Positions 612-59,099 of a stretch of DNA of 64,000 nucleotides are shown here, in pieces; the stretch's first letter is position 1; every line of letters starts with the position of its first letter. A program made the position numbers and the translations under genes. The stretch spans positions 8,990,001 through 9,054,000 of the forward strand of contig NC_086097.1 in NCBI RefSeq assembly GCF_963921235.1, given 5' to 3'. A model generated the notes under the pieces. It had not been told where the DNA came from. It did no database searches and saw nothing but the letters and a program-made list of their open reading frames with translations. This stretch comes from Mobula hypostoma. Its lineage: Eukaryota.

Positions 612-811
612 CTGCACAGGACATGATCTTTCCTAGTGTCTGCTCTCGTGCCAACCCTGCCCGTAGCATTCCTTCTCTGCCTCCTGTCCCACACACCTCC
701 CATAGTGCTCCACCCTCGCAGTTCCCAATATCCTGTACTCCCACCAGATTTTCAAACCCTGTCCCCTGCACCGCAGTACTGTGCAAAGGTCTTAGGCACC
801 CTAGCTATATA
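612..811 (-). mobile_element. Fragment of a Tc1-type MITE with a hairpin terminus (same family as 50320-51488)
   Basis: CAGTACTGTGCAAAGGTCTTAGGCAC terminal motif at 775-799; the reverse complement of 660-770 aligns by eye with 50713-50830. Confidence 0.6.
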
Positions 812-1687
812 CAGCTCATTGCAGCCCAAAAGTTCTGTTTTTACTTCATCAGTCCACAGGACTTGTTTCCAAAATACATCAGGCTTGTTTAGATGTTCCT
901 TTGAACCTTTTTAATAGAACTTTTTGGCCGCAATGAGCAAAGGTATGTTTGGAGAAAAAAGGGTGAAGAATTTCAGGAAAAGAACCCCTCTCTAAATGTT
1001 AAGCACGGGGGTGGATCGATCATACTTTGGGCTTGTGTTGCAGCCAGTAGCACGGGGAACATTTACCGGTAGAGGGAAGAATGAATTCAATTAAATACCA
1101 GCAAATTCTGGAAGCAAACATCACACTGTCTTTAAAAAAGCTGAAGATGAAAAGAGGATGGCTTCTACAACAGGATAATGAACCTAAACACATCTCAAAA
1201 TCCACAATGGACTACCTCAAGAGGCGCAAGCTGAAGGTTTTGCCATGGTCTTCACAGTCCCCTGACCTGAACATCATCGAAAATCTGTGGATAGACCTCA
1301 AAAGAGCAGTGCATGCATGACCACCCAAGAATTTCACAGAACTGGAAGCCTTTTGTAAGGGAGAATGGGCGAAAATCCTTTGAACAAGAACAGAAAGACT
1401 CTTAGCTGGCTACAAAAAGCATTTACAAGCTGTGATACTTGCCAAAGGGGGTGTTACTAAGTACTGACCATGCAGGGTGCCCAAACTTTTGCTTCAGGCC
1501 TTTTTCCTTTTTTGTTATTTTGAAACTGTAAAAGATGGAAATAAAAAAGTTTTCTTGCTTAAAATATTAAAGAAATATGTAATCTTTAACTTTATGCCTT
1601 TTGGAAATCAGTTCATCTTTTACTCGCATAGCTATTCACAGTAACAGAAATTTTGAGCAGGGGTGCCCAAACTTTTGCATGCCACTG
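812..1687 (+). mobile_element. Tc1 (DD34E) transposon derivative: 3' half of transposase plus right TIR, with fold-back junction
   Basis: Translation has QQDN...SPDLNIIEN with 34 residues between D and E and ends AKGGVTKY* at 1467. Inner DR GGGTGCCCAAACTTTTGC near 1475-1492 repeats at the terminus ...GCATGCCACTG|TA (1687). Several stops. Confidence 0.92.
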
Positions 1688-1729
1688 TATATATATAGAG
1701 CAAAAAAAAGGGCAAATTAGAAAAAAAAA

Positions 1730-7953: not shown

Positions 7954-10313
7954 TGTGGTGAGCATTTGGTCCATGATGGCAGATGAGGAAGCTCGTTAAA
8001 CTCAACAACCGTTTTTATTGTAATAAACACAAAACCAGTCAGGGCACTATGACCCAGGGAGAGAACCCACTCGGTCACATTACAGACAGGGGAGGTGATT
8101 ATTACACACCCCAGTTTACAACACACATGCGTATAACTATATAACCCAAGCTAAAATGTAACAATAAATAAACTTGAACATCCAACCATAATCCCACAAA
8201 AGCATTTTAAAACAAGAATAATAAATAGCGCTGGCCACTAGGAATGCTCAGGCATTCTGTTGATCACGCATCCCCCCCACCAGCACCCGAGCGCCTCTCT
8301 GCCTCCACCTGAGGAGTCAGCCATCCCCAGTAACCCCAGAGTTCAAACAAAGCCATAATGTCCCGGTGATGGTCAACACTACCACCCAGGGAGCTGGTGG
8401 GCTACAGGAGCCCCTCCACCCCCGGGGGGGGCACTGCTCCATGAGACATGAGGCAGGGCACCCAGAGTGTCACTTCTTTCCTTTAGACTCGCTGGGTCGG
8501 TGGTGGCCAAGAGCCAATATGGTGCTGACTGGTCCTGGTGCAACACAACAGCCTTCCACAGCTCAGGCAACAACACCTGATGTACCGCATTAGAGATGCA
8601 GTCGAACACCTGTCCTGGCTCCTTTCAGTGGCTTCCCAGCTTGGGGGATAGTCCCTTCTTTTGTGAGGGGGGCAGTAGATCCATTCTGGGGCCCCCACAA
8701 GGTACTGCTCCATTGGCACCCTAGACTGACGGCCCAGCCCCTTCTGGGACGTGCAAGTATTGCTGAATTGCACAAACACCTCCACCTGTACTCAGGCCAG
8801 TAGAAGCCTGCCCACCATCTTTCCAACTCCAAAATGGCCGGCCCCGACTAGTCCATGCAGCAACCACAGCACCATGTCTCGGAGCATCCAGGGCACCAGC
8901 AGCTGCAGGAGCTGTCTGACGCCACCAGAAAATGACCACCGTCAGATCAGCAACTGGTCGCGCACCTCCAGCATTCCCCACCGAGATTATAGGGCTTTGG
9001 TCTCTGGATCACCCTGCACCCCGGTCACTGTTCCATGCTCAGCCATTCCCTCACCGGTGCCAGCATGGGATCGCTCATCTGCTGGTCAACGGTGGGGAGG
9101 TTTACCTGGCTGCCAGGTGCCATCTGAAACGCCGCCACCACTGCTTGCCCCTGTTTCCGCTGTGTTGTGCTGGGCCGCTCCAGAGTGTGCTGCACTGCGG
9201 CGGGCTGCTGTGAGATGGGTGCTGGTTGTTGCTGCCCTCGCTGGGTCTGCTTCCTGGAGCTGCCCTGCCGGAGATCCATGCCTTTGGTGCCAAAGTAGAG
9301 TGTTGCCCCCCCACCCCCCCGCCACACGTCCACATTGGCCCCCCAGGTGGGCAGCAGGTCCAGGCCAATGATGCAGGACTCCCGGATGTTGGCTGGCCAC
9401 ACCTCGTGCCCCACTGTAATGCGCAGCCACCTCTTCCCTCGCATCGTCACACAGTCGCCAGTGACCGTAGCCAGCTGAACCTCAGTCGTTGCCCACCCAG
9501 GCAGGGATGGTGGTCCATGTTGGGGAGGACACCCGGATTGACGATGCTAATGATAGACCCCGTGTCCACCAATGCACGGCACCTGATATCCTCCACCCCA
9601 CGCAGCCCACGTGTAAGCCTTGCTCTTCACCCAAACAGACCACTGTGTCCTCCAGGTTGCCTGGGAAGGCACGATGCTCGGTTCCCAGTTCCTCCATCTG
9701 GGTCCTGCCTTCATGAGCCCGGGCCGGTGGGGGACGGGAGGTGGGGGATGTGTGCAGGGAGGCATTCTGCTTGTTTCCTTGACTTATTCACCAGCTTTTA
9801 AGTGGCTCTATCTGATGTCGTGGCTCCTCAATCTCATCGACATTTTCAAATCCTACTCCTGATACCAATGTGGTGAGCATTCAGTCCATAATGGCAGACG
9901 AGGAAGCTCATTAAACTCAACATCTGTTTTTATTGTGATAAACGCAAAACCAAACCGGGTGCTATGATGCAGGGAGAGAACAGTTCAATCTCATACAGAT
10001 GGGGGAGGTGATTGTCACACATCCCGGTTACATTCAGGGTGACCCACAAACACACGTGTGAATAACTATATAACCCAAGCTAAAACGTAACAATAAATGA
10101 ACTTGTATATCCCACCATAATCCCACAAAAGCATTAAGAAAAGGACAATAAGAAAAAAAGAAGAGGAAGAAACTGAGCCAGAAGCTGTGGAACTAAGACA
10201 AGAAATTAGACAAGAGGTTAAATGATAGCGTTGGTCATTAGAAATGCTGGGGTGGGTTGTTGACCATACCAACCATGCCACTCCCCCCACCACACCCCTG
10301 GAGGAGTGCAACA
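7954..10313 (-). mobile_element. Internally deleted (non-autonomous) Gypsy LTR retrotransposon
   Basis: TGT...ACA ends; ATAA TSD at 7950-7953 and 10314-10317; LTRs at about 7954-8270 and 9869-10313, both starting TGTGGTGAGCATT. Protease CRALVDTGS near 9560-9580 and IIGLDLL; integrase zinc-finger remnant (LLHGLVGAGHFG...FYWP). No RT seen. Confidence 0.9.
9850..9867 (-). promoter_or_regulatory. Primer-binding site (tRNA-Leu type) of the Gypsy element
   Basis: Minus strand TGGTATCAGGAGTAGGAT lies 1 nt from the 5' LTR and is two transitions from TGGTGTCAGGAGTGGGAT (tRNA-Leu CAG complement). Confidence 0.8.
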
Positions 10314-14180: not shown

Positions 14181-14706
14181 GCACTTCTTATTTAATTTAA
14201 CTATTTTATACATGTATACATACTGTAATTCACAGTTTCACAGTTGTTTACCTATTACTATGTATGCTGCTGCAAAATACCAAATTTCACGACATATGCT
14301 GGTGATATTAAGCTTGATTCGGATTCTCAGTCAGGTTTAATATCATTGGCAAATGTCGTGAAATTTGATATTTTGTAGAAATTTGCGAACGTCTTTGGTA
14401 TCAAACCAAAGCTGAAACTCTGAATTAAATATAGCCACTATTGAGCCCTCTTTGGAGCTGCATCGTATGTTGGGTCTATGTTAGATCCTCAGAGATAATG
14501 ACACTCAGGACTTGAAATTAACAACAAACAACATACATCAAAGTTGCTGGTGAACACAGCAGGCCAAGCAGCATCTATAGGAAGAGGCGCAGTCGACGTT
14601 TCAGGCCGAGACCCTTCGTCGTCGTTCACTCTTTGCACTTTTGATCTCTCTATGAGGATTGGTTTGTGTCCCCTTGTCTTACCCTTCTTGCAGTCCACAA
14701 TCAGTT

Positions 14707-15137
14707 CTGATATAACAGACCCCCGTACACCCTCTCATCACCATCTGAAATTTACTGATATAACAGACCCCCGTACACCCTCTCATCACCATCTGAAATT
14801 TACTGATATAACAGACCCCCGTACACCCCCTCATCACCATCTGAAATTTACTGATATAACAGACCCCCGTACACCCTCTCATCACCATCTGAAATTTACT
14901 GATATAACAGACCCCCGTACACCCTCTCATCACCATCTGAAATTTATTGATATAGCAGACCCCTGTACACCCTCTCATCACCATCTGAAATTTACTGATA
15001 TAACAGACCCCCGTACACCCTCTCATCACTATCTGAAACTTACAGATATAACAGACCCCCGTACACCCGCTCATCACCATCTGAAACTTACTGATATAAC
15101 AGACCCCCGTACACCCTCTCATCACCATCTGAAATTC
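14707..15137. repeat. Minisatellite, 9 copies of 48 bp (CTGATATAACAGACCCCCGTACACCCTCTCATCACCATCTGAAATTTA)
   Basis: Directly visible tandem array; translates as nine TDITDPRTPSHHHLKF units in ORF 14544-15146. Confidence 0.97.
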
Positions 15138-16744
15138 TGCCAATAATTCACAGCATTAATGTTGAAGTGCTATTTTATTCCCATATTCAGGGGAGAATTT
15201 CAGAGTTAATATATGTTATACAGCTTGTGATAGATGAGATGTTTTTTCAGGTTTAATATCATCGGCATATGTTGTGAAATTTGTTAACTTTGCAGCAGCA
15301 TTACAATGCAGTATATGATAATAGAGAAAAATTGTGAATTAGATTAAGTATATACGTATAAATAGTTAAATTAAGTAAATAGTGCAAAAATAGAAATAAA
15401 AAAATAGTGAGGTTGTGTTCATGGGTTCAATGTCCATTCAGAAATCAGAGGGGGAGCTTTTCCTGAATCACTGAGTATGTGCCTTCAGGCTCCTGTACCT
15501 CCTTTCTGATGGTAGTAATGAGAACAATGCACGATCTGCGTGATGGTAGTCCTTAGCGATGACACTACCTATTTTATTAGAGTTCGATACCAAATGGACT
15601 TTTCACTGATTTCCATAACCTTTAAGCTCACCTTTAAGGATTCTTCATTTCATATTCCCAATACTTTTTGCTTATTTATTTATTATTATTATTATTTCTT
15701 TTGTATTTGCAGTTTATCGTCTTTTGCATATTGTTTGTTTGTCCGTCATGTTGGATGCAGTCTTTCATTGATTCTATTGTGTTTCTTGAATTTACCGTGC
15801 ATGTCCACAAGAAAACAAATCTCAGGGCTGTATATAGTGACATATACATATGTACTTTGATAATACATTTACTTTGAACTTTAATTTTCTGTGGCAGAGT
15901 GAGGAGAGTGATGGACCATTTGGAATCATAGGATACATCTGGCATCATTTCCAAGCACAGCAAGCAGTGTGACAATTAACATACTGGAAAACAGAATTAA
16001 TATCCAATGGTTCTATCCTAATTTTAATATTCATGTGCTTGCATCAGCTCTCTTTATTGATTAGATTAGATTTTTGACTTGTTCCTCTGTTCATTAATGG
16101 TTTAATAATTGCTGAAAGAACATCTGTTTCGAGTAAAAGTGGATCACCATTAATGCATGGAAATGTAGACATGATAGTGCGTCTAAGAAGAACCTATATG
16201 TTTTAGCTTCAATTAAAAAAAAATGTGCCAAGAGCAATGAGCATTTAAGAATGAAACATTTATGCTTTATTCCAGAAGAATTATTCCTCCAGATAATTAA
16301 ATCTTTCAAAGGCCATTTAACAGAGGTAAATCAAAGGAAAAAAAGTTAATTTATTTAATTGTTCTGCAATGTGCATCCTGCATCTATTTTTCAATTTGTT
16401 AATGCAGGATATAAGAGCAATCACTGTGTGTTGTACCTCTTTATCTGCATACTGAGAAGCTAATTTCTCTAAGGGGGAATCAAGAACAAAGCAATATTTT
16501 CTTATATATAAAACAAACCATTGCAGGATTTTTGTTGAAACATCTGCTATCCCTTTGCCTCAAAAGGGCAGTATCCCTCAGTAATGACCCCTTCACCCAG
16601 TACATGCCCTCTTCTCATTGTTACCTGGAGCGTGAAGACACACACTGAGAGTTTTAGGAACAGCTTCTTACCCTCTGCCATCAGATCAGATTTCTAAGTG
16701 GTCAAAATGAAGCCATGAACACTACATTAGTGTTCCACTTGCAA

Positions 16745-25829: not shown

Positions 25830-28095
25830 AACATCATCGTCACAGGGGATTCCATAGTGAGGGGAACAGACAGGAGGTTCTGTCAACCTGTTAGAGATAC
25901 CCACATGGTGTGTTGCCTCCCAGCTGTCAGTGTACGGGATGTCTCGGATCAGGTGCAGAGTATTCTGAAGGGAGTCTTGGTATATGTTGGTACCAATGAC
26001 ATAGGTAGAAAGAAGGAGGAGGTCCTGAAGAGAGAATTCAGGGAGTTGGGTAGGAAGCTGAAAAGCAGGACCTCTAGGGTACGAATCTCAAGATTGCTCC
26101 CTGTGCCACATGCTAACAAGTGCAACATCAGCATGATCAGGCAAATTAATGTGTGGCTGAGAGAGGGCAGGGTTCCAGGTTCCTGGATGATTGGGGCCTC
26201 TTCTGGAGGAGGTATGACCTGTACAAACTTCACTTCCCTGACACTCTTGAATATCTGGTATACTGCAGATGTCTTCCACTGTGAAGACTGATGCAAAATA
26301 CGCATTCGGTTCCTCTGCCACCTCTGGCAGAAGAATGGTCAGGGGGATGGGAACCAGAGTGATAGGGCTGAGAAAGGAAAAAAACAGAAATATATCAAAG
26401 ATAGTGTGCAACAGAGATGATAGAAAGGACAGACAGGAGTTAAATCTTCATCACAGCCAGTGGGATGAGTTACAGGGCAATAGAGGTGCAGCTAAAACCG
26501 AAAGCAACAAATACTGAACTGAAAGTGTTGTACTTGAATGCACGCAGCATAAGAAATGAAATGGATGATCTTGAAATTCGGCTACAGGTTGGCAAGTATG
26601 ACGTTGTGGCCATCTCTGAAACTTGGCTTGCGGAGGCATTAACAATGATCTTTCAAAAAATGATCGATTCTGGCATTGTACCAGATGACTGGAAAATTGC
26701 AAATGTTACTCTGCGATTTAAGAAGGGTGGGAGGCAGCAGAAAGGAAACTATAGACCCGACATCAGTGGTTGGGAAGTTGTTGGAATCGATTATTAGGGA
26801 TGAGATTAGAGGCACATGACAGGATAGGCCAAACCCAGCATGGTTTCCTGAAAGGAAAATCCTGCCTGACAAACCTACTGCAACTTTTTGAGGAAATAAC
26901 AAGCAGGGTAGACAAAGGAGATGCAGTGGATGTGGTGTACTTGGATTTTCAGAAGGCCTTTGACAAGGTGCTGCACATGAGGCTGCTTAGCAAAATAAGA
27001 TCCCATGGAATTACAGGGAAGTTATTAGCATGGGTGGAGCATCGGCAGAAAACAGAGTGGGAATAAAGGGATCCTATTCTGGCTGGCTGCTGGTTACTGG
27101 TGGAGTTCCATATGGGTTGGTGTTGGGACTGTTGCTTTTTACAATATATGTCAATGATTTGGACTACGGTATTAATGGATTGGTGGAAATTTGCCGATGA
27201 TACAAAGAGGAGCAGGTAGTGTTGAGGAAACAGAAAGCCTGCAGAGAGACTTAGATAGTTTAGGGGAATGCGCAAAGAAGGGACAAATGAAATACAGTGT
27301 TGGAAAGTGTATGGTCATGCATTTTGGTGGAAGAAATAAATGGGCAGACTATTACTTAGGTGGGGAGGGAATTCAAAATACAGAGGTGGGAGTCCTTGTG
27401 CAAGACACACCAAAGATTAACCTTGAGGTTGATTCGGTTGTGAAGAAGGTGAATGCAATGTTGACATTCATTTCTAGAGGTATAGAATATAAGAGCAGGG
27501 ATGTGATGTTGACGTTCTATACAGTAATTGTGAGACCACACTTGCAGTATTGTGTGAAGTTTGGGTTTCCTTATTTTAGAAAGGATATACTGACATTGGA
27601 GAGGTTCAGAAAAGATTCACTAGAATGATTCCAGGAATGATAGGGTTACTGTATGAGGAACATTTGGCAGTTCTTTGACTGTATTCCCTGGAGTTCAGGA
27701 GAATGAGGGGGGATCTCATAGAAACATTCCAAATGTTAAAAGGCCTGAACAGATTGGGTATGGCAAAATTATTTCTCATGGTAGGGGAGTCTAGGACAAG
27801 AGGGCACAACATCAAAATTGAAGGACGTCCATTTAGAACAGAGTTGGGAGAAATTACTTTAGTCAGAGGGGGTGGTAAATCTGTGGAATTTGTTGCCACG
27901 CGTGGCTTGTGGAGGCCAAGTCATTGGTTGCATTTAAGGCAGCGATAGATAGGTTCTTGATTAGCCAGGGCATCAAAGGGTGTGGGGAGAAGGCATGGAG
28001 TGGGGATGACTGGAAGAATTGGATCAGTCCATGATTAAATGGTGGAACAGTCTCGATGGGCTGAATGGCCTACTTCTGCTCCTATACCTTACGGT
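25830..28095 (+). mobile_element. CR1 LINE (ORF1 esterase, endonuclease start, RT, 3' end) with internal deletion and inverted segment
   Basis: GDSIVRGTDRRFC / VGTNDIGRK esterase; LKVLYLNARSIRN endonuclease; QHGFLKGKSCLTNLL, VDVVYLDFQKAFDKV and FADD RT motifs; 3' terminus GAATGGCCTACTTCTGCTCCTAT. Confidence 0.92.
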
Positions 28096-28109
28096 CATAT
28101 GGAACAAAT

Positions 28110-33569: not shown

Positions 33570-34800
33570 TCTGGAGGTTAGCGGTAACTAATGCGTGCGT
33601 GTAGAGTGGGGTGGATATTTGTACCCTGGATGAATTGTTAATTTGATTTTTGAGTACGCTTAAAACTGTTGGCAAAGTTGCAGTTGTAGGGAGGAGATTT
33701 GATAAAATGGCGGGTTCAGACCTTGTTTTAGTTCAGACTAGCGCTGACGTAATGGCGGCGGAACTTCCAGCTTCTATCGGTGCCCCAGCTGAGGCGGGGC
33801 ATGACCTGTCCATACTGTCAGGGAGGAGGAGAATGTAGCGGAATGGGCTGAGTCACGGGTCGAGCTTTCTGTAGCTGGGGGTGGAGACTTCAAGGACAGG
33901 GTTCTATCGTTTCTGAGGAGTGAGGGGAAGGAGTGGTCATATTTGGAATGTCTAATTAGTCCACGTCCCCTAGTGAAGAGTGAGAATTCTGAGTTAGTAA
34001 CCATCCTTACCTCTCTGGCAAATAAATGGAAAAATGCCCAGGTTCAAAGTCCCTGCTATGGCAGGCTCTGCCTATTCTCTGGAATAACACCCACCCCTAA
34101 AGGGGAAGAGGAGTATGAGATTTGGGCGGAGCAGACCTCTCAGTTGTTAGATGAGCGTCAGTGCTCTGATGACGTAAGGCGACAGAGACTGGTTGAGAGT
34201 TTGAGTGGGTAGGCCGCTGATATGGTGACAGCTGTGAAAACAGGCCAACCGTTAGCTAGCATTGCCGATTATCTGGGCGCATTGGAGGGCGCCTTTGGTA
34301 CAACAGGGAGCCCACTGGAGCTCATGGTGAGGTTTCAGAACATGCGTCAGGAGAAGGGGGAGAAGCTTTCTGCTTACATTTGTCGACCAGAGAGGCAGCT
34401 AAATTGCTTGCAGCACATAGGGGTCATTCAGGTGGCTAAAGCAGATCAGTTAAGAATGGACCAGACAGCCAGGGGTGCCCAGTCCCAGGACTTGATTGCT
34501 TGGGTGTCTCCGACAGTCTCATAAGACGCACCCCCTCCCTCTTTTGTTGAGCTGATCAGAGAGGTACGGGAGGAGGAGAATGCGTCGGAGGCGTGGGAGG
34601 ACTCCGTCAGCAGGGTACACTCCTCGGTAGTAGCCCCTTGTGGTGAAGTGACCACAGGTAGCCTACCCCAGGGAGCGGTAGAGGATATTGTGGCAGAGTT
34701 GAGAACGGAGATATGTCGGCTGTTATCAGTGGGTGTGACCCCCTCCCATATGATGGATCTGATGGGGGGGGGGGATTCCCCAAGGGGACGAACAATGCGG
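33570..34800 (+). pseudogene. Disrupted gag, PNMA/MOAP1-like (N-terminal domain and capsid)
   Basis: VGKVAVVGRRFDK...LVLVQTSADV...LPASIG; LCLFSGITPTPKGEEEYEIWAEQ...RRQRLVESLSG*; YLGALEGAFG...FQNMRQEKGEKLSAYI. Stops and frameshifts present. Confidence 0.88.
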
Positions 34801-34984
34801 AGGGCTGCTGGCAGCAGGTGTCACGCGAGAAGGAGAGTGAACCCCTGGGTACCTCAGCAGGGAGAGCCGTTGGGAAAACCTAGAGGAGAAACAGTGAGGG
34901 GAAAGGCCTCAGGTCTCTGGGGGAACACGTTCCCAGCAATGTACCAGGGAACTCTGGAAATCGAAAGGCCCAGTTCCTGAAGTA

Positions 34985-37933
34985 GTGGGACCACGCTCCA
35001 GTGTGTCGCTACGAATAGAGGGTATTTATGCTAAAGTCATACTCGACACAGCGTCACAGGTCACGTTGTTGTACCGTTCGTTTTACAACTGGTATCCGAA
35101 GCATCTACCATTGACACCATTCAGAGCACTAGAGATCTGGGGGCTTAGTGATACTGATTATCCAAACGACAATTATTTCTCAGTGAAGTTGGAGTTCTCG
35201 GAGGCCGATGTGGGAATGTCTGAGGTCCTTGATACAGTGGTGCTGGTTTGTCCGGACCCTGTTGAGACGGGCGGCGTCTCAATTCTGGTGGGGACCAACA
35301 CCCCTCTTGTGAAGAGGCTCATGGGGGCCTGCAAGGAGAAGGCTAGCGAGAGCTTTCTGGGAACATTGTCCATATACCCGGGGTTTTGAACTGCTTTTGA
35401 AGAAGTACGTGGCAACCTTGGGCCAGATACCAAATTTAAACAAGGGACTGTGTGGTTCACCAGTCGAAGCCAATGGTGGTTCAGCCCGGGGGAGTAGTGA
35501 GAGTGATGGGGACCCCCAAATTTCCCGGAGTGCCTGAGGGCGAACCCCTCTTAGTGGACACTCCGGAAGACCATGAGGGGGAGTCGGGATTTCCTGCTGG
35601 GGTACTGGTGAGGCCTAAATTGCAGAAGCCCTCGGTTGTACAGGAATGCAGGATGGCAGTGATTGTCAGGAACACTACGAAGAGGGAGGTCACCTTCAAG
35701 TGGGGGATGCCCCTGGCGCACTTGTTCCCAGTGATGGTAATTTCCCTGTGAGACACGCCAGGGAGAAACTATTGGAAAAGGGGGGAAAGTTGACTTCCGA
35801 GTCATTCAACTTTGGGGACTCCCCGGTTCCTGTAGGTTGGAAGAGGAGGCTGGTAGAGAAGATGTTGAAGCTGGAAGGTGTCTTTTCCACTGACGAGTTT
35901 GATGTGGGTTGTTCCAAGAGCACTCATCACAATATCCAGGTGACTGAGGATGCCCCGTTCAGAGAAAGGTCATGGCAACTGGCCTCTGCAGAGGTGGAGG
36001 ACGTTCAGCAGCATTTATGTATGTTGAAGGAAGCTGGGGTCATAACCGAGTCCCGAAGTCCCCATGCGTCCCCAGTAGTAGTGGCCCGAAAGAAGAATAG
36101 GAAAGTACAGATGTGTGTGGACCACATCCCTGACCGGCATACTGTCCCAAGGATTGAAGACGCGCTGGCCTGCCTAAGTGTTGTGAAGTGGTTCAGTGTG
36201 TTGGACTTGAGGAGTGGATATTACCAGGTCCCCAGGAGTGGGGCCGACAAAGAGAAAATGGCATTTATATGTCCCTTGGGAATTTTCCAGTTCAAAAGCA
36301 TACCCCAGGACATCTCGGAAGCTCCTGTAACCTTCCAGCGGGTCATGGAGAAGACGGTGGGGGATATGAACTTGCTTGAGGTATTGGTATATCTGGATGA
36401 TCTCATAGTATTTGGGTCCACCTTGGAAGAACATGAAGCGAGGCTGCTGAAGGTGCTCGGTCACCTGAAAGCTGAAGGGTTAAAACTTTTCCTGGACAAG
36501 TGATAGTTCTGCAAAACATCTGTTAGCTAAGTTGGGCACATAGTCTCACGTTTGGAGTATTTACAGATCCAGACTAAGATAGAGATGGTCACCACTTGGC
36601 CAAGACCCCAGACTGTGAGCGCTCTGCACTCGTTCCTCAGGTTCTGTGGTTACTATCAGAGGTTTGTGAAAGACTACGCAAAAGTGAGTCACCGGTTGAA
36701 TCAGCTTCTGTGCGGTTACCCTCCCTTGGGGAAGAAAGGGAGAAAGAGAAAAGGACAGGAGGAGGGAGAGTATCTTAGTCCGTCGGAGCCCTTTGGACCG
36801 AGGTGGGATGCGGACTGTGAAGAGGCCCTTCAGTCATTGAAGGAACTGCTGACACAGGCACCAATACACCAGATATACGCAGGCTTTTCCTTCCAAGGAC
36901 CAGAGGGTATCTATGGTGGCCAAAGCGTTATGGAAGAAGTATTTCATTTATTATAGCCTTCCCAGGTGGATACATAGTGATCAGGGACAGGATTTTGAGA
37001 GCAGACTCGTCCATAAGTTGCTGGGCATGATTGGAGTTGATAGGTCGAGGACCACACCCTATCACGCACAGGGTGATCCCCAGCCCAAGAGGTTGAATTG
37101 GACTTTGCTATATATACATGCTCGGGACCCTGGAAATCAACAAAAAGAAGGTGGCGTCAACATAATGGACATCTGGTTCACAGTTACAACTGTAGTCAAA
37201 ATGAGGCTACTGGGTACTCACCGTATTATCTGATGTTTGGGCACGAGGCAAGGTTGCCCATTGACCTTTGTTTTGGGACTGATGAGAGTGACTTACCCCT
37301 GAAGACTTATCTGAAGTGTGTATCTGACAGGAGAAGAGAGCAGAAGAGGGCTTATGAATTAGATGGATCATGGCTTCCAAGCAAAATCAAGGAAATAAGA
37401 GGAGGTATGATCAAAAGGTGAGGTTCTCCCTACTCCTACCGGGAGACTGGATCCTCAGAAGGAATTTGGGGATACCTGGGAAACATAAGTTGGTGGACCG
37501 CTGGGCAGCTAAGCTCTATGTGGTAGAGAGTCAAATGCCAAACCTACCAGTTTTCCGGGTGAAACCAAAGGATGGGAATGGGCCTGTCAAGATTCACCAT
37601 CGGAACCACCTGCAAGAAGTGCAGGTAGACCCAGAGCTCGACTTGGAGCCTACACTTAGTAAAAGGACTCTGCGGAAGTGCGGGGTGGCTGCAGGGCCCA
37701 CAGCAGGAGAGATTAGGGTGGGCCTCACCCCTGAGAGGGATACTGATTTGGAGGATGAGGACCTAGATGTGTGGTATATGCTGCCTTTTGTTAACTCCCC
37801 AATGATTGAGGAAGAGACTTCCTGCCCTTTTCCCGCTGAGTCAGGTGAAGTGGGGGGACAGCTTGCCTCGCAGCAGGACCCTGGAAGGGATGAAACGGGG
37901 TTTGGCCATGGGACAGAAGGGTCCGAGTTGTAG
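34985..37933 (+). pseudogene. Disrupted pol (protease, RT, partial integrase)
   Basis: ORF pieces 34985-35389 (DTAS), 35646-36503 (YLDD), 36552-36956 and 36913-37421 (HSDQG, ATGYSPYYLMFG), 37370-37933; many frameshifts. Confidence 0.92.
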
Positions 37934-38193
37934 GTGGACATGAATGATAGGTCAGGGGAGGCATCGCCAGGTAGTCTGGAAGTATCCCCAGTAGTGTCTG
38001 AACCTGAAGAGTTAGGTGAGGGGGTACGGAGGTCTCAGAGAATTAGGAGACCATGGTACACAGTGTGACCTCTACCGTTTTGGGGAGCTATGTCACTGCC
38101 TTTCATACCTGGCTTAGACTTTGTGTTTTACAAGAAGGGTTGGTGAATTATCTCAACGTCACGAGGACATGACTAAATTTGATGGGGGGAGAG

Positions 38194-50319: not shown

Positions 50320-51488
50320 ACTACACAAAAGTCTTGGGCACGACCCGCCCAGCCAACACACTTTTCATCCCTCTTCCCTCCGGGAGAAGGCTCAGGAGCT
50401 TGAAGACTCGTACGGCCAGATTTGGGAACAGCTTCTTTCCAACTGTGATAAGACTGCTGAACGGATCCTGACCCGGATCTGGGCCGTACCCTCCACATAT
50501 CCGGACCTGCCTCTCGGTTTTTTTTTTTGCACTATCTTACTTTCCAATTTCTATTTTCTAGTTATGATTTATAATTTAAATTTTTAATATTTACTATCGG
50601 TTTGTACTCCAGGGAGGGGGAAGCGCTGAATCAAATATCGCTGTGATGATTGTACGTTCTAGTATCAATTGTTTGACGACAATAAAGTATAAAGTATAAG
50701 CATATACATATTGGAGTGGAGAGGGAGTTTATAGATCTGGCAGGAAGAAAGGATGTTGGTGGTCATGAGGGTGAAGCACCACCGGAAAGGTGTGGGATAG
50801 GTGGCAGAGAAAAAATGCTGGGGTGGGGGAGTGGTGTAGGTGCAGCCTCTCCCAGCCCTGTGACACCAGGCATATGAATCCAAACTATCGGTTTACTGAT
50901 CATTACAGGATGTCTTTCTGGTGCCTCTTGCTCCCTTCCCTCTTCCTTCCCCTTTTCCCAACCATGATTCCCCTCTCCAGAACGAGGGGTCACAGTTTGA
51001 GGATAAAGGGGAAGCCTTTTAGGACCGAAATGAGGAAAAACTTCTTCACACAGAGAATGGTGAATCTGTGGAATTCTCTGCCACAGGAAACAGTTGAGGC
51101 CAGTTCATTGGCTATATTTAAGAGGGAGTTAGATATGGCCCTTGTGGCTAAAGGGATCAGAGGGTATGGAGGGAAGGCTGGTACAGGGTTCTGATTTGGA
51201 TGATCAGACATGGTCATACTGAATGGTGGTGCAGGCTCGAAGGGCCGAATAGCCTACTCCTGCATCTATTTTCTATGTTTCTATGTTTCTCCCTGCCCCC
51301 TTCCCACTCTCAGTCCACAACAGAGACACACATCAGAACCTGGTTTATCTTCATACACGTATGTCATGAAATTTGTTTTTTTTTACAGCAGCAGAGCACA
51401 GTGCAATAAATAAAATTACAACAGTACCGTGCAAATGTTTTAGACACTCTCGCTATATATATGTGCTTAAGACTTTTACACAGTTCTG
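50320..51488 (+). mobile_element. Tc1-type MITE with hairpin terminus, carrying nested Rex1 (50342-50699) and CR1 (50979-51290) 3' ends
   Basis: Left CAAAAGTCTTGGGCAC; right GTGCTTAAGACTTTTACACAGTTCTG|TA, with an inverted inner copy at 51422-51447. Nested LPSGRRLRSLKTRTARFGNSFFP with (AAGTATA)n tail, and RTRGHSLRIKGKPF with (TTCTATGT)n tail. Confidence 0.7.
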
Positions 51489-54594: not shown

Positions 54595-55125
54595 GAACCA
54601 TAAGACCATCAGATATAGGAGCAGAAGTAGGCCATTTGGCCCATCTAGTCTTATCTGCCATTCAATCATGCCCGATCCAATTCTTCCAGTTATCCCAACT
54701 CCCCTGCCTTCTCCCCAAACCTTTTGATGCCCTGGCTAATCAAGAACCTATCTATCTCTGCCTTAAATGCACCCTATGCCTTGGCCTCCACAGCTGCTTG
54801 TGGCAACAAATTCCACAGATTTACTACCCTCTGACTGAAGTAATTTCTCCACACCTCTGTTCTAATTGGACATCCTTCAATCCTGAAGTCATGCCCTCTT
54901 ATCCTAGACTCCACTACGATGGGAAATAACTTTGCTATATCTAATCTTTTCAGGCCTTTTAACATTCGGAATGTTTCTATGAGATACCCCTCATTCTCCT
55001 GATCTCCAAGGAATACAGCCCAAGAGCTGCCAGACATTCTTCATATGGTATCCCTTTCATTCCTGGAATCATTCTCGTGAATCTTCTCTGAACTCTCTCC
55101 AATGTCAGTATATCCTTTCTAAAGT
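54595..55125 (-). mobile_element. CR1 LINE 3' end
   Basis: LIETFRMLKGL...ESRIRGHDFRI...FSQRVVNLWNLLP. Confidence 0.88.
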
Positions 55126-55128
55126 ATG

Positions 55129-55952
55129 AAAGTTCTATTCAAAAGGTTCAAAGGAATATCTAAACAAGCCTGAAGCATTTTGGAAACAAGTCCTGTGGGC
55201 TGCTGAAGTTAAAATAGAACCTTTTGCCGCAATGAGCAAAGGTACGTTTGGAGAAAAAAGTGTGCAGAATTTCATGAAAAAAAACCCTCTCCAACTGTTA
55301 AGCACGAAGGTGGATTGATCATGCTTTGGGTTTGTGTTGCAGCCAGTGGCATGGGGAACATTTACTGGTAGAGGGAAGAATGAATTCAATTAAATACCAG
55401 CAAATTCTGGAAGCAAACATCACACCATCTATAAAAAAGCTGAAGATGAAAAGAGGATGGCTTCTACAACAGGATAATGATCTTAAACACACCTCAGAAT
55501 CCACAATGGACTACTTCAAGAGGCGCAAGCTGAAGGTTTTGCCATGGCCCTCACAGTCCCCCGACCTAAACATCATCCAGAATCTGTGGATAGACTTCAA
55601 AAGAGCAGTGCATGCAAGACGGCCAAGAATCTCACAGAACTAGAAGCCTTTTGCAAGGAAGAATGGGTGAAAATCCCCCAAACAAGAATTGAAAGACTCT
55701 TAGCTGGCTACAGAAAGCATTTACAAGTTGTGATACTTGTCAAAGGGGGTGTTACCAAGTACTGCCATGCAGGGTGCCCAAACATTTGCTTCGGGCCTTT
55801 TTCCTTTTTTTGTTATTTTGAAACAGTAAAAGATGGAAATAAAAAAGTTTTCTTGCTTAAAATATTAAAGAAATATGTCATCTTTTACTTGCTTAGCTAT
55901 TCACAGTAACAGAAATTTTGACCAGGGGTGCCAAAACTTTTGCATGCCACTG
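55129..55952 (+). mobile_element. Tc1 (DD34E) derivative, second copy: fold-back junction, 3' transposase half and right TIR
   Basis: FWKQVLWAAE, QQDN and SPDLNIIQN; ends GCATGCCACTG|TA; highly similar to 913-1687. Confidence 0.92.
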
Positions 55953-56184
55953 TATATACTTTGATAAAAAGTTTACTTTGAGTCTGTTTAATAGGGTAGC
56001 TGTTGATGGCATTGTGGTAAAGTTACTAGAGCTGCTGGCGCAGTGTGAGTGACTTCTGTACAGTCTTCATCTCTGGAGCTGTGTGTGTGAAATTTGTATA
56101 ATTTCTCCATGATTGGATGGGTTACCTCTGAGTATCATAACTTCAGAGTTCAGAGTTCAAAGTAAATTTGAAAATTAATACCAT

Positions 56185-57966: not shown

Positions 57967-58500
57967 CAGTGCCTAAAAAAAGTATTCACCTCCCCTTGGA
58001 AGTTTTCATGTTTTATTGTTTTACAACATTGAATCAGTGTATTTAACTTGGCTATTTGACACTGATCAATTAAAAAGTACTCATTCGTGTCAAAGTGAAA
58101 ACAGATCTCGACAAAGTGATTTAATTACAAATATGAAACACAAAATACTTGATTGCATAAGTATTCACCACCCCCCACCTTTGAAATGACACACCAAATC
58201 TTCACTGGTGCAGCCAAATGGTTTTAGAAGTCGCATAATTAGTGAAATAGAGATCTGTTTTTGGAGACCTGTGTGCAGTCAAGGTATTTCAATTCACTGT
58301 AGTAAAAATCCACCTGGATCTGGAAGGTCCAGGTGCTGGTGAGTCAGTATTCTGGCAAAAGCTACACCATGAAGACAAAAGTATAGGCCAACCAACTCCA
58401 TGAAAAGCAAAAGTCAGGAGGTGGATTCAAGAAAATTTCCAAGCCACTGAATATCCATTGGAGTACAGTTAAGTCAATCACCAAGGAATAGAAAGAATAC
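57967..58500 (+). mobile_element. Tc1 transposon 5' end (left IR/DR TIR and degenerate transposase start), a different family
   Basis: TA|CAGTGCCTAAAAAAAGTATTCACC; inner DR TAAGTATTCACC near 58158; ATGAAGACAAAA then GFKKISKPLNIHWSTVKSI. Confidence 0.8.
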
Positions 58501-58956: not shown

Positions 58957-59099
58957 AAGAGACCTGTGGCAACCCTGGAGCAGTTACAAGCATCACTGGT
59001 TGAGGAGGATTTACTCTGCATACAACTGTTGCCCAGGTACTTCAACAGTCACAGCTTTATGGGGGAGTGGTAAACAGAAAGTCACTGTTGAAAAAAATC

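Follow-up and report, generated by a model that had tools for sequence, protein, structure and literature searches.

Two Tc1 copies with one fold-back junction in mirror orientations point to a replicated fold-back derivative in Mobula hypostoma

Tc4 of C. elegans is a palindromic fold-back DNA transposon with an overall design similar to the one discussed here, and Tc6 is similar. Tc4, however, is a DDD element with a CTNAG target, whereas the copies described below are Tc1 DD34E elements (PMC11071193). For this and the other published systems, our comparisons draw on excerpts of the cited papers.

Several Tc1/mariner elements have had one end replaced by an inverted version of the other. Rpmar17 and Rpmar49 are rearranged mariner lineages of Rhodnius prolixus, in each of which the 3' part stands in place of the 5' part (PMC4678618). 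There are 13 independent copies of Rpmar49; Rpmar17 copies reach more than 1,700 bp, but most have since undergone deletions near the breakpoint (PMC4678618). Goblin is a MITE from Ozma in Aedes aegypti; both of its subterminal regions derive from the right end and are joined at an inverted 6-bp microhomology, for which template switching has been proposed (PMC3814204). The Drosophila long-TIR mariner MITEs comprise seven sublineages in which one end was replaced by the inverted other end and the product then amplified (PMC4161770). Outside this group, Mu killer of maize duplicates part of a transposase gene in inverted orientation and has the same terminal repeat twice (PMC3440606). A right-right rearrangement is already known in insects and is not new in kind.

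The window we analysed is a 64,000-nucleotide stretch of the Mobula hypostoma genome, and it contains two decayed Tc1 (DD34E) right halves: copy 1 (812-1687) and copy 2 (55129-55952). Like Rpmar17 and Rpmar49, they are non-autonomous, and inverted 3' sequence with homology to the transposase takes the place of the 5' part. Set against the Rpmar17/49-Goblin type, two features match: inverted 3' stubs (26 and 11 bp) stand at a shared junction with the 5' half absent in the window, and the same breakpoint occurs in at least two copies with different flanks, as in that type. For the third and decisive feature, copies with both arms ending in terminal repeats plus a TA duplication number zero in the window, and the contigs are too short to show one, the longest listed piece being 252 bases. 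On these two features, the copies would work like 3'-3' rearranged non-autonomous Tc1/mariner derivatives.

There are also differences. In Rpmar17/49 copies the centre is gone and both ends survive; ours retain the centre and appear to have lost one arm with its flank. The Rhodnius elements are insect mariners, and in the cited excerpt their authors propose deletion between neighbouring copies, not fold-back (PMC4678618). Goblin is a miniature with 54-bp repeats, whereas the arms proposed here would be 775 bp long and include half the gene. The Drosophila sublineages, as far as the excerpt describes them, are all 5'-5', in contrast to the 3'-3' type seen here.

Anatomy of the two copies and their junction

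Both copies are recognisable as Tc1. The DDE_3 transposase domain (PF13358) matches copy 1 at 1081-1317 (E 7e-7, above cut-off), and the closest intact relative protein, P0004 (340 aa; 94% over a 79-residue query), is 89% identical to copy 1 over residues 209-340 by tblastn. P0004 has catalytic residues D153, D244 and E279, with 34 residues between the second D and the E, and the alignment with copy 1 is gap-free across the D244-E279 stretch. Stops and frameshifts break the transposase frame in both copies, so neither is autonomous, and the first catalytic D of copy 2 is mutated (WAAE). Each right terminal repeat has two 18-bp direct repeats followed by TA (1688-1689 and 55953-55954, right ends only). 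Neither a left terminal repeat nor a 5' half of this family was found within the window. Table 1 gives the coordinates of the parts.

Table 1. Parts of the two copies and their immediate surroundings in the window
Feature	Position	Strand	Basis or remark
Left half of a different short palindromic Tc1-type mini-element, AT-rich centre	774-811	.	84% to 51422-51459
Copy 1: 2 bases at left breakpoint, unexplained; terminal-repeat remnant or repair filler	812-813	.	sequence
Copy 1: stub of second (inverted) arm, 26 bp	814-839	-	23/26 inverted match to 913-938
Copy 1: spacer, 73 bp, unpaired, reversed; transposase codons up to first catalytic D	840-912	-	tblastn with P0004
Copy 1: junction filler, part of spacer	903-912
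Copy 1: long arm, 775 bp; 3' half of transposase gene plus right terminal repeat	913-1687	+	gene end ~1467, frameshift and stops
Copy 1: 18-bp direct repeats in long arm	1475-1492, 1661-1678
Copy 1: TA at right end, then 3' part of host repeat	1688-1689	.	5' part of host repeat absent on left
LINE-like host repeat fragment, ends at copy 2 left breakpoint	54597-55128	+	86% to 27572-28102 and other window copies; LINE label from reading the sequence, not from a family search
Copy 2: inverted-arm stub, 11 bp	55129-55139	-
Copy 2: junction filler, 10 bp	55140-55149	-	9/10 reverse complement of arm tip
Copy 2: remaining spacer, forward	55150-55212	+
Copy 2: long arm to right terminal repeat	55213-55952	+	direct repeats 55772-55789, 55926-55943

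The sequence-only reading that started this work described copy 1 as an inverted repeat around a reversed piece of coding sequence, and this holds. Positions 814-839 and 913-938 pair at 23 of 26 bases. Of 200 dinucleotide shuffles of 812-1687, none reaches 23; their highest score for a 26-bp inverted match with non-overlapping arms is 20. By the same statistic the copy 1 long arm on its own scores 17, and copy 2 with the junction removed scores 18. On its minus strand, the copy 1 spacer (840-912, 73 bp) codes for P0004 residues 133-164 at 81%, including the first catalytic D.

The same reading held that the two copies share a junction in opposite orientations, and we find this too. The 28-bp junction at 896-923 (minus strand) is 27/28 identical to 55129-55156 (plus strand), and a scan of the window allowing up to three mismatches returns these two places only (0.00 expected). 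Copy 2 has the same spacer in the forward direction, preceded by its short stub. Compared with any coding of P0004 residues 129-137, the junction agrees at no more than 15 of 27 bases, with 3 of the first 12. Given that best coding match of 15/27, it cannot be intact transposase coding sequence.

We read the junction as at least 11 bases of inverted arm, then a 10-base filler, then the spacer. The filler may be a second templated copy of the arm tip, and it carries the same odd base in copies 1 and 2. From this arrangement we infer a two-step fold-back with a single origin. In copy 2, the filler (55140-55149) is a perfect 10-bp inverted repeat of 55217-55226 by way of a private base at 55221, where the family majority differs from copy 2; that base may have arisen by chance, or through a later template switch that corrected the arm tip against the filler.

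The filler also bears on whether any derivative moved at all. Ordinary Tc1 copies might have folded back independently at the same short inverted match, a recurrent repair hot spot with no transposed derivative: both loci look like break-repair patchworks with left flanks lost, and intact codons 132-134 could give a few bases of inverted match (judging from the protein). We regard this as unlikely, because independent events should not yield an identical two-step filler with the same odd base, and the copy 1 arrangement would additionally require 775 bp of copying or a flip.

The left edges of the copies are less tidy. Homologs of the LINE-like fragment continue differently beyond the copy 2 breakpoint, and up to 3 bases of the 11-bp stub also match that fragment. 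At copy 1, the reported letters TA|CAG stand at 810-814, but they are weak evidence for a left terminal repeat, since the TA is the centre of another palindromic mini-element and the inverted arm starts with the G, leaving 2 bases without explanation. A cleaved terminal repeat as their source is a weak proposal, as it would need a second deletion to give the mismatched flanks. We therefore do not count TA|CAG as sound support for a left terminal repeat, the TA coming from the unrelated mini-element at 774-811. An intact version of that mini-element lies at 51422-51488 (67 bp, palindromic, both halves present), of which 774-811 is a half copy; its ends resemble, yet differ from, the terminal repeat of copies 1 and 2.

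The window contains other features that we record for completeness. A tandem array at 14611-15186 has a 48-bp period, and its central units are 95-100% identical. GC-rich stretches (50-56%) at 8001-10000 and 34001-38000 hold several frames that run for 150-294 codons with no stop. At 58414-58485 and 59007-59093, in order on the plus strand, tblastn gives very weak matches (E 0.55-4.4) to N-terminal sequence of Tc1 transposases; they are possibly a remnant of another Tc1 family and were not recovered at E 0.01.

Separate insertions and copies beyond the window

The right ends of both copies are TA-flanked and sit in unrelated host repeats, and the two arms match at 682 of 739 positions (92% identity), with copy 2 showing a 33-bp deletion relative to copy 1 near 55879. 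Unrelated TA sites together with 92% identity make the junction older than transposition. There are 40 listed positions at which copy 2 departs from the family majority, and at the 28 of these that were tested copy 1 has the majority letter 25 times; of the other three, two are shared with copy 2 and one has a third letter in copy 1. This pattern of substitutions fits separate insertions from a common source during a family burst, not a recent duplication.

Part of the element is present in 20 sequencing runs from 11 studies. Joints were examined against copy 2 in four of the 24 listed runs: X1, X2 and X15 as contigs and X21 as raw reads. An opposite-strand joint, 55131/2-55222/6, is present in all three contig runs, which come from three differently coded organisms. 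X1 has two contigs with the fold-back joint (summed depth 107.9, shorter side 41 letters), X2 has one (depth 69.8, shorter side 33) and X15 has one (depth 6.94, shorter side 29). A further X1 contig (depth 38.9) joins 55261 to 55132 via 12 letters resembling a diverged inverted arm tip. These figures cover the joints listed, giving at least three junction-bearing contigs in X1. The raw-read run, X21, had four aligned reads, none of them at the junction.

The junction is thus not limited to the two loci in the window. The ortholog of copy 1 can account for no more than one locus in any run, so X1 suggests additional junction-bearing loci, though its two fold-back contigs could be alleles. Depth at 55115-55143 is 83,030, 52,082 and 35,495, against 1.13M, 0.82M and 1.00M at 55173-55201, which hints at many junction-bearing copies, depth being no measure of copy number. 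Alignments can reach the 55115-55143 bin, as one X15 contig (record 9) shows: it aligns from 55136, and its 466 upstream letters lie off the arm. High-depth internal-deletion joints also occur, at 55513-55571 in X1 (582.6) and 55549-55623 in X15 (804.7), and these suggest other amplified non-autonomous subfamilies of the same Tc1 in related organisms.

Fold-back chimeras occur in sequencing data, and an artefact of sequencing or assembly must be weighed for any junction of this kind. We consider that explanation, or an autointegration product, highly improbable. The arms within copy 1 differ at 3/26 bases, the two loci are ~8% apart and the joint recurs in three runs from separate studies; that recurrence in X1, X2 and X15 largely rules out an artefact. 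We reject autointegration, which would require a transposon end at the junction, where there is none. The claim that a fold-back Tc1 derivative replicated is therefore supported by the shared junction, the unrelated TA-flanked sites, the mostly private substitutions and the further contigs.

Wider searches returned little. The exact junction pattern had no matches in metagenome contigs, and spacer patterns had none in viral and genome contigs. Protein-based locus searches for the family gave distant relatives only (8 loci; 0; 13 loci at 29-65%), with a 124-bp DNA match in one of the first 8. Since neither the pattern searches nor the protein-based locus searches recovered DNA of an intact element, the exact breakpoint is not fixed. 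A literature search found no paper on the terminal-repeat motif, which leaves the family without a name. Bacterial genome records also contain Tc1-like transposase genes (L009-L021, up to 65% identical to P0004), for the most part on short contigs; these are likely to be eukaryotic contamination.

A probable two-armed palindrome and its proposed loss of arms

Our preferred explanation, to which we give a probability of about 0.6, is that both copies descend from a full two-armed palindrome with two right ends (775 + 73 + 775 = 1,623 bp). One Tc1 copy would have been rebuilt by fold-back synthesis during a family burst. Copying from the right end would have stopped ~73 nt beyond the catalytic-D codon, and the new strand would have folded back on itself. 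It would then have copied 10 nt of the arm tip, shifted back by a few bases to prime again, and been extended as far as the right terminal repeat. The product would be a non-autonomous palindrome of ~1,623 bp, which an intact transposase could have moved in trans to several TA sites. At each insertion one arm would later have been removed along with adjacent host DNA; breakage at a hairpin or cruciform followed by end-joining is the simplest route. What remained would be a single long arm and a short stub, with the spacer facing either way.

Two observations agree with this palindrome. Relative to the spacer, the long arm is on one side in copy 1 and on the other in copy 2, and a palindrome yields both orientations, so no extra event is needed. 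In both copies the left host DNA does not continue the right host DNA, so arm loss took the flank along. Mobilisation in trans is a reasonable proposal, because engineered transposons with two identical ends are mobile to a degree that depends on the end (PMC4505599, in the cited excerpt).

The sequence-only reading had proposed a hairpin of ~1.6 kb with two ~775-bp arms. Fold-back before transposition is the supported part of that claim; the two long arms were seen neither in the window copies nor in the contigs (a weak test, as the longest listed contig piece is 252 bases) and are plausible only. In the window, the second arm reaches 26 bp at most (26 in copy 1, 11 in copy 2). If a 775-bp arm broke uniformly, the chance of both stubs ending within 26 bp of the spacer would be ~0.001, and this calls for tip-directed arm loss or an arm that was short from the start. 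It also counts against the palindrome that any run may owe one of its joints to the ortholog of copy 1, that two X1 contigs may be alleles, and that the upstream letters of X15 record 9 lie off the arm.

An originally short arm is possible but clearly less probable. A fold-back of a few tens of bases would have been rejoined to a left end and transposed, and in the copy 1 lineage the 73-bp loop would later have flipped across the short repeats that flank it. The surviving second arms of just 11 and 26 bp suit such a derivative, and fold-back duplications of ~5-34 bp at breaks are documented in yeast (PMC11724301, in the cited excerpt). It requires an extra inversion, however, and both copies must also lose the left end right beside the junction. 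An X15 joint between opposite strands at 55142-55879 (depth 126.5) could be a left terminal repeat near the filler, as a short-arm derivative would have, but it may equally derive from an intact copy, and 55879 is the site of the private deletion of copy 2. At 126.5 against 4.6-34.8 in the eight listed X15 pieces, that joint may mark an amplified derivative in which ~70 bp of left terminal repeat is attached close to the junction.

For the two-armed palindrome, tip-directed loss has a candidate route. Cruciform cleavage gives hairpin-capped ends, and fold-back priming is known (PMC7999016, in the cited excerpt); by analogy, such ends, once opened and end-joined, would give the pattern seen here. 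The same source reports that longer spacers make palindromes more stable and that a 52-bp spacer often stalled forks only in E. coli. The stabilising effect of the spacer weakens the cruciform step.

RNA folding, silencing and meaning

It had also been proposed that transcripts of the Tc1 derivative form long double-stranded RNA and act as a built-in silencing trigger. This is unsupported. As RNA, copy 1 forms a 26-bp stem (z -6.24), and copy 2 folds no better than shuffles (z -0.81); a long double-stranded stem is absent from both loci, the only two examined in the window. Any long dsRNA would have to come from intact two-armed copies, none of which was found here. Mu killer is the model for the idea: a read-through hairpin RNA of 4 kb has been proposed for it, and its silencing has been measured (PMC3440606, in the cited excerpt). 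Unlike Mu killer, the extant copies are without a long stem.

Overall, we consider the feature real and the replicated derivative supported, while the full hairpin is probable though unseen, and silencing is unsupported. Our literature search, which covered few subscription journals, turned up no description of this kind of derivative in fishes. Should intact two-armed copies exist, the right-right Tc1/mariner derivatives described in insects would extend to a Tc1 of vertebrates. Silencing, if true, would be of greater consequence.

A broader history can be sketched, which we think doubtful. A two-right-arm Tc1 palindrome may have spread to tens or hundreds of sites before related species split, after which hairpin-directed breakage removed one arm and its flank at each locus, so that only short stubs, facing either way, remained; dsRNA from intact hairpins may have contributed to the end of the parent burst. 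If palindromes were lost in this way, stub lengths across loci would show how the germline removes long palindromes, and the loci would preserve, in natural and datable form, how a vertebrate germline processes palindromes.
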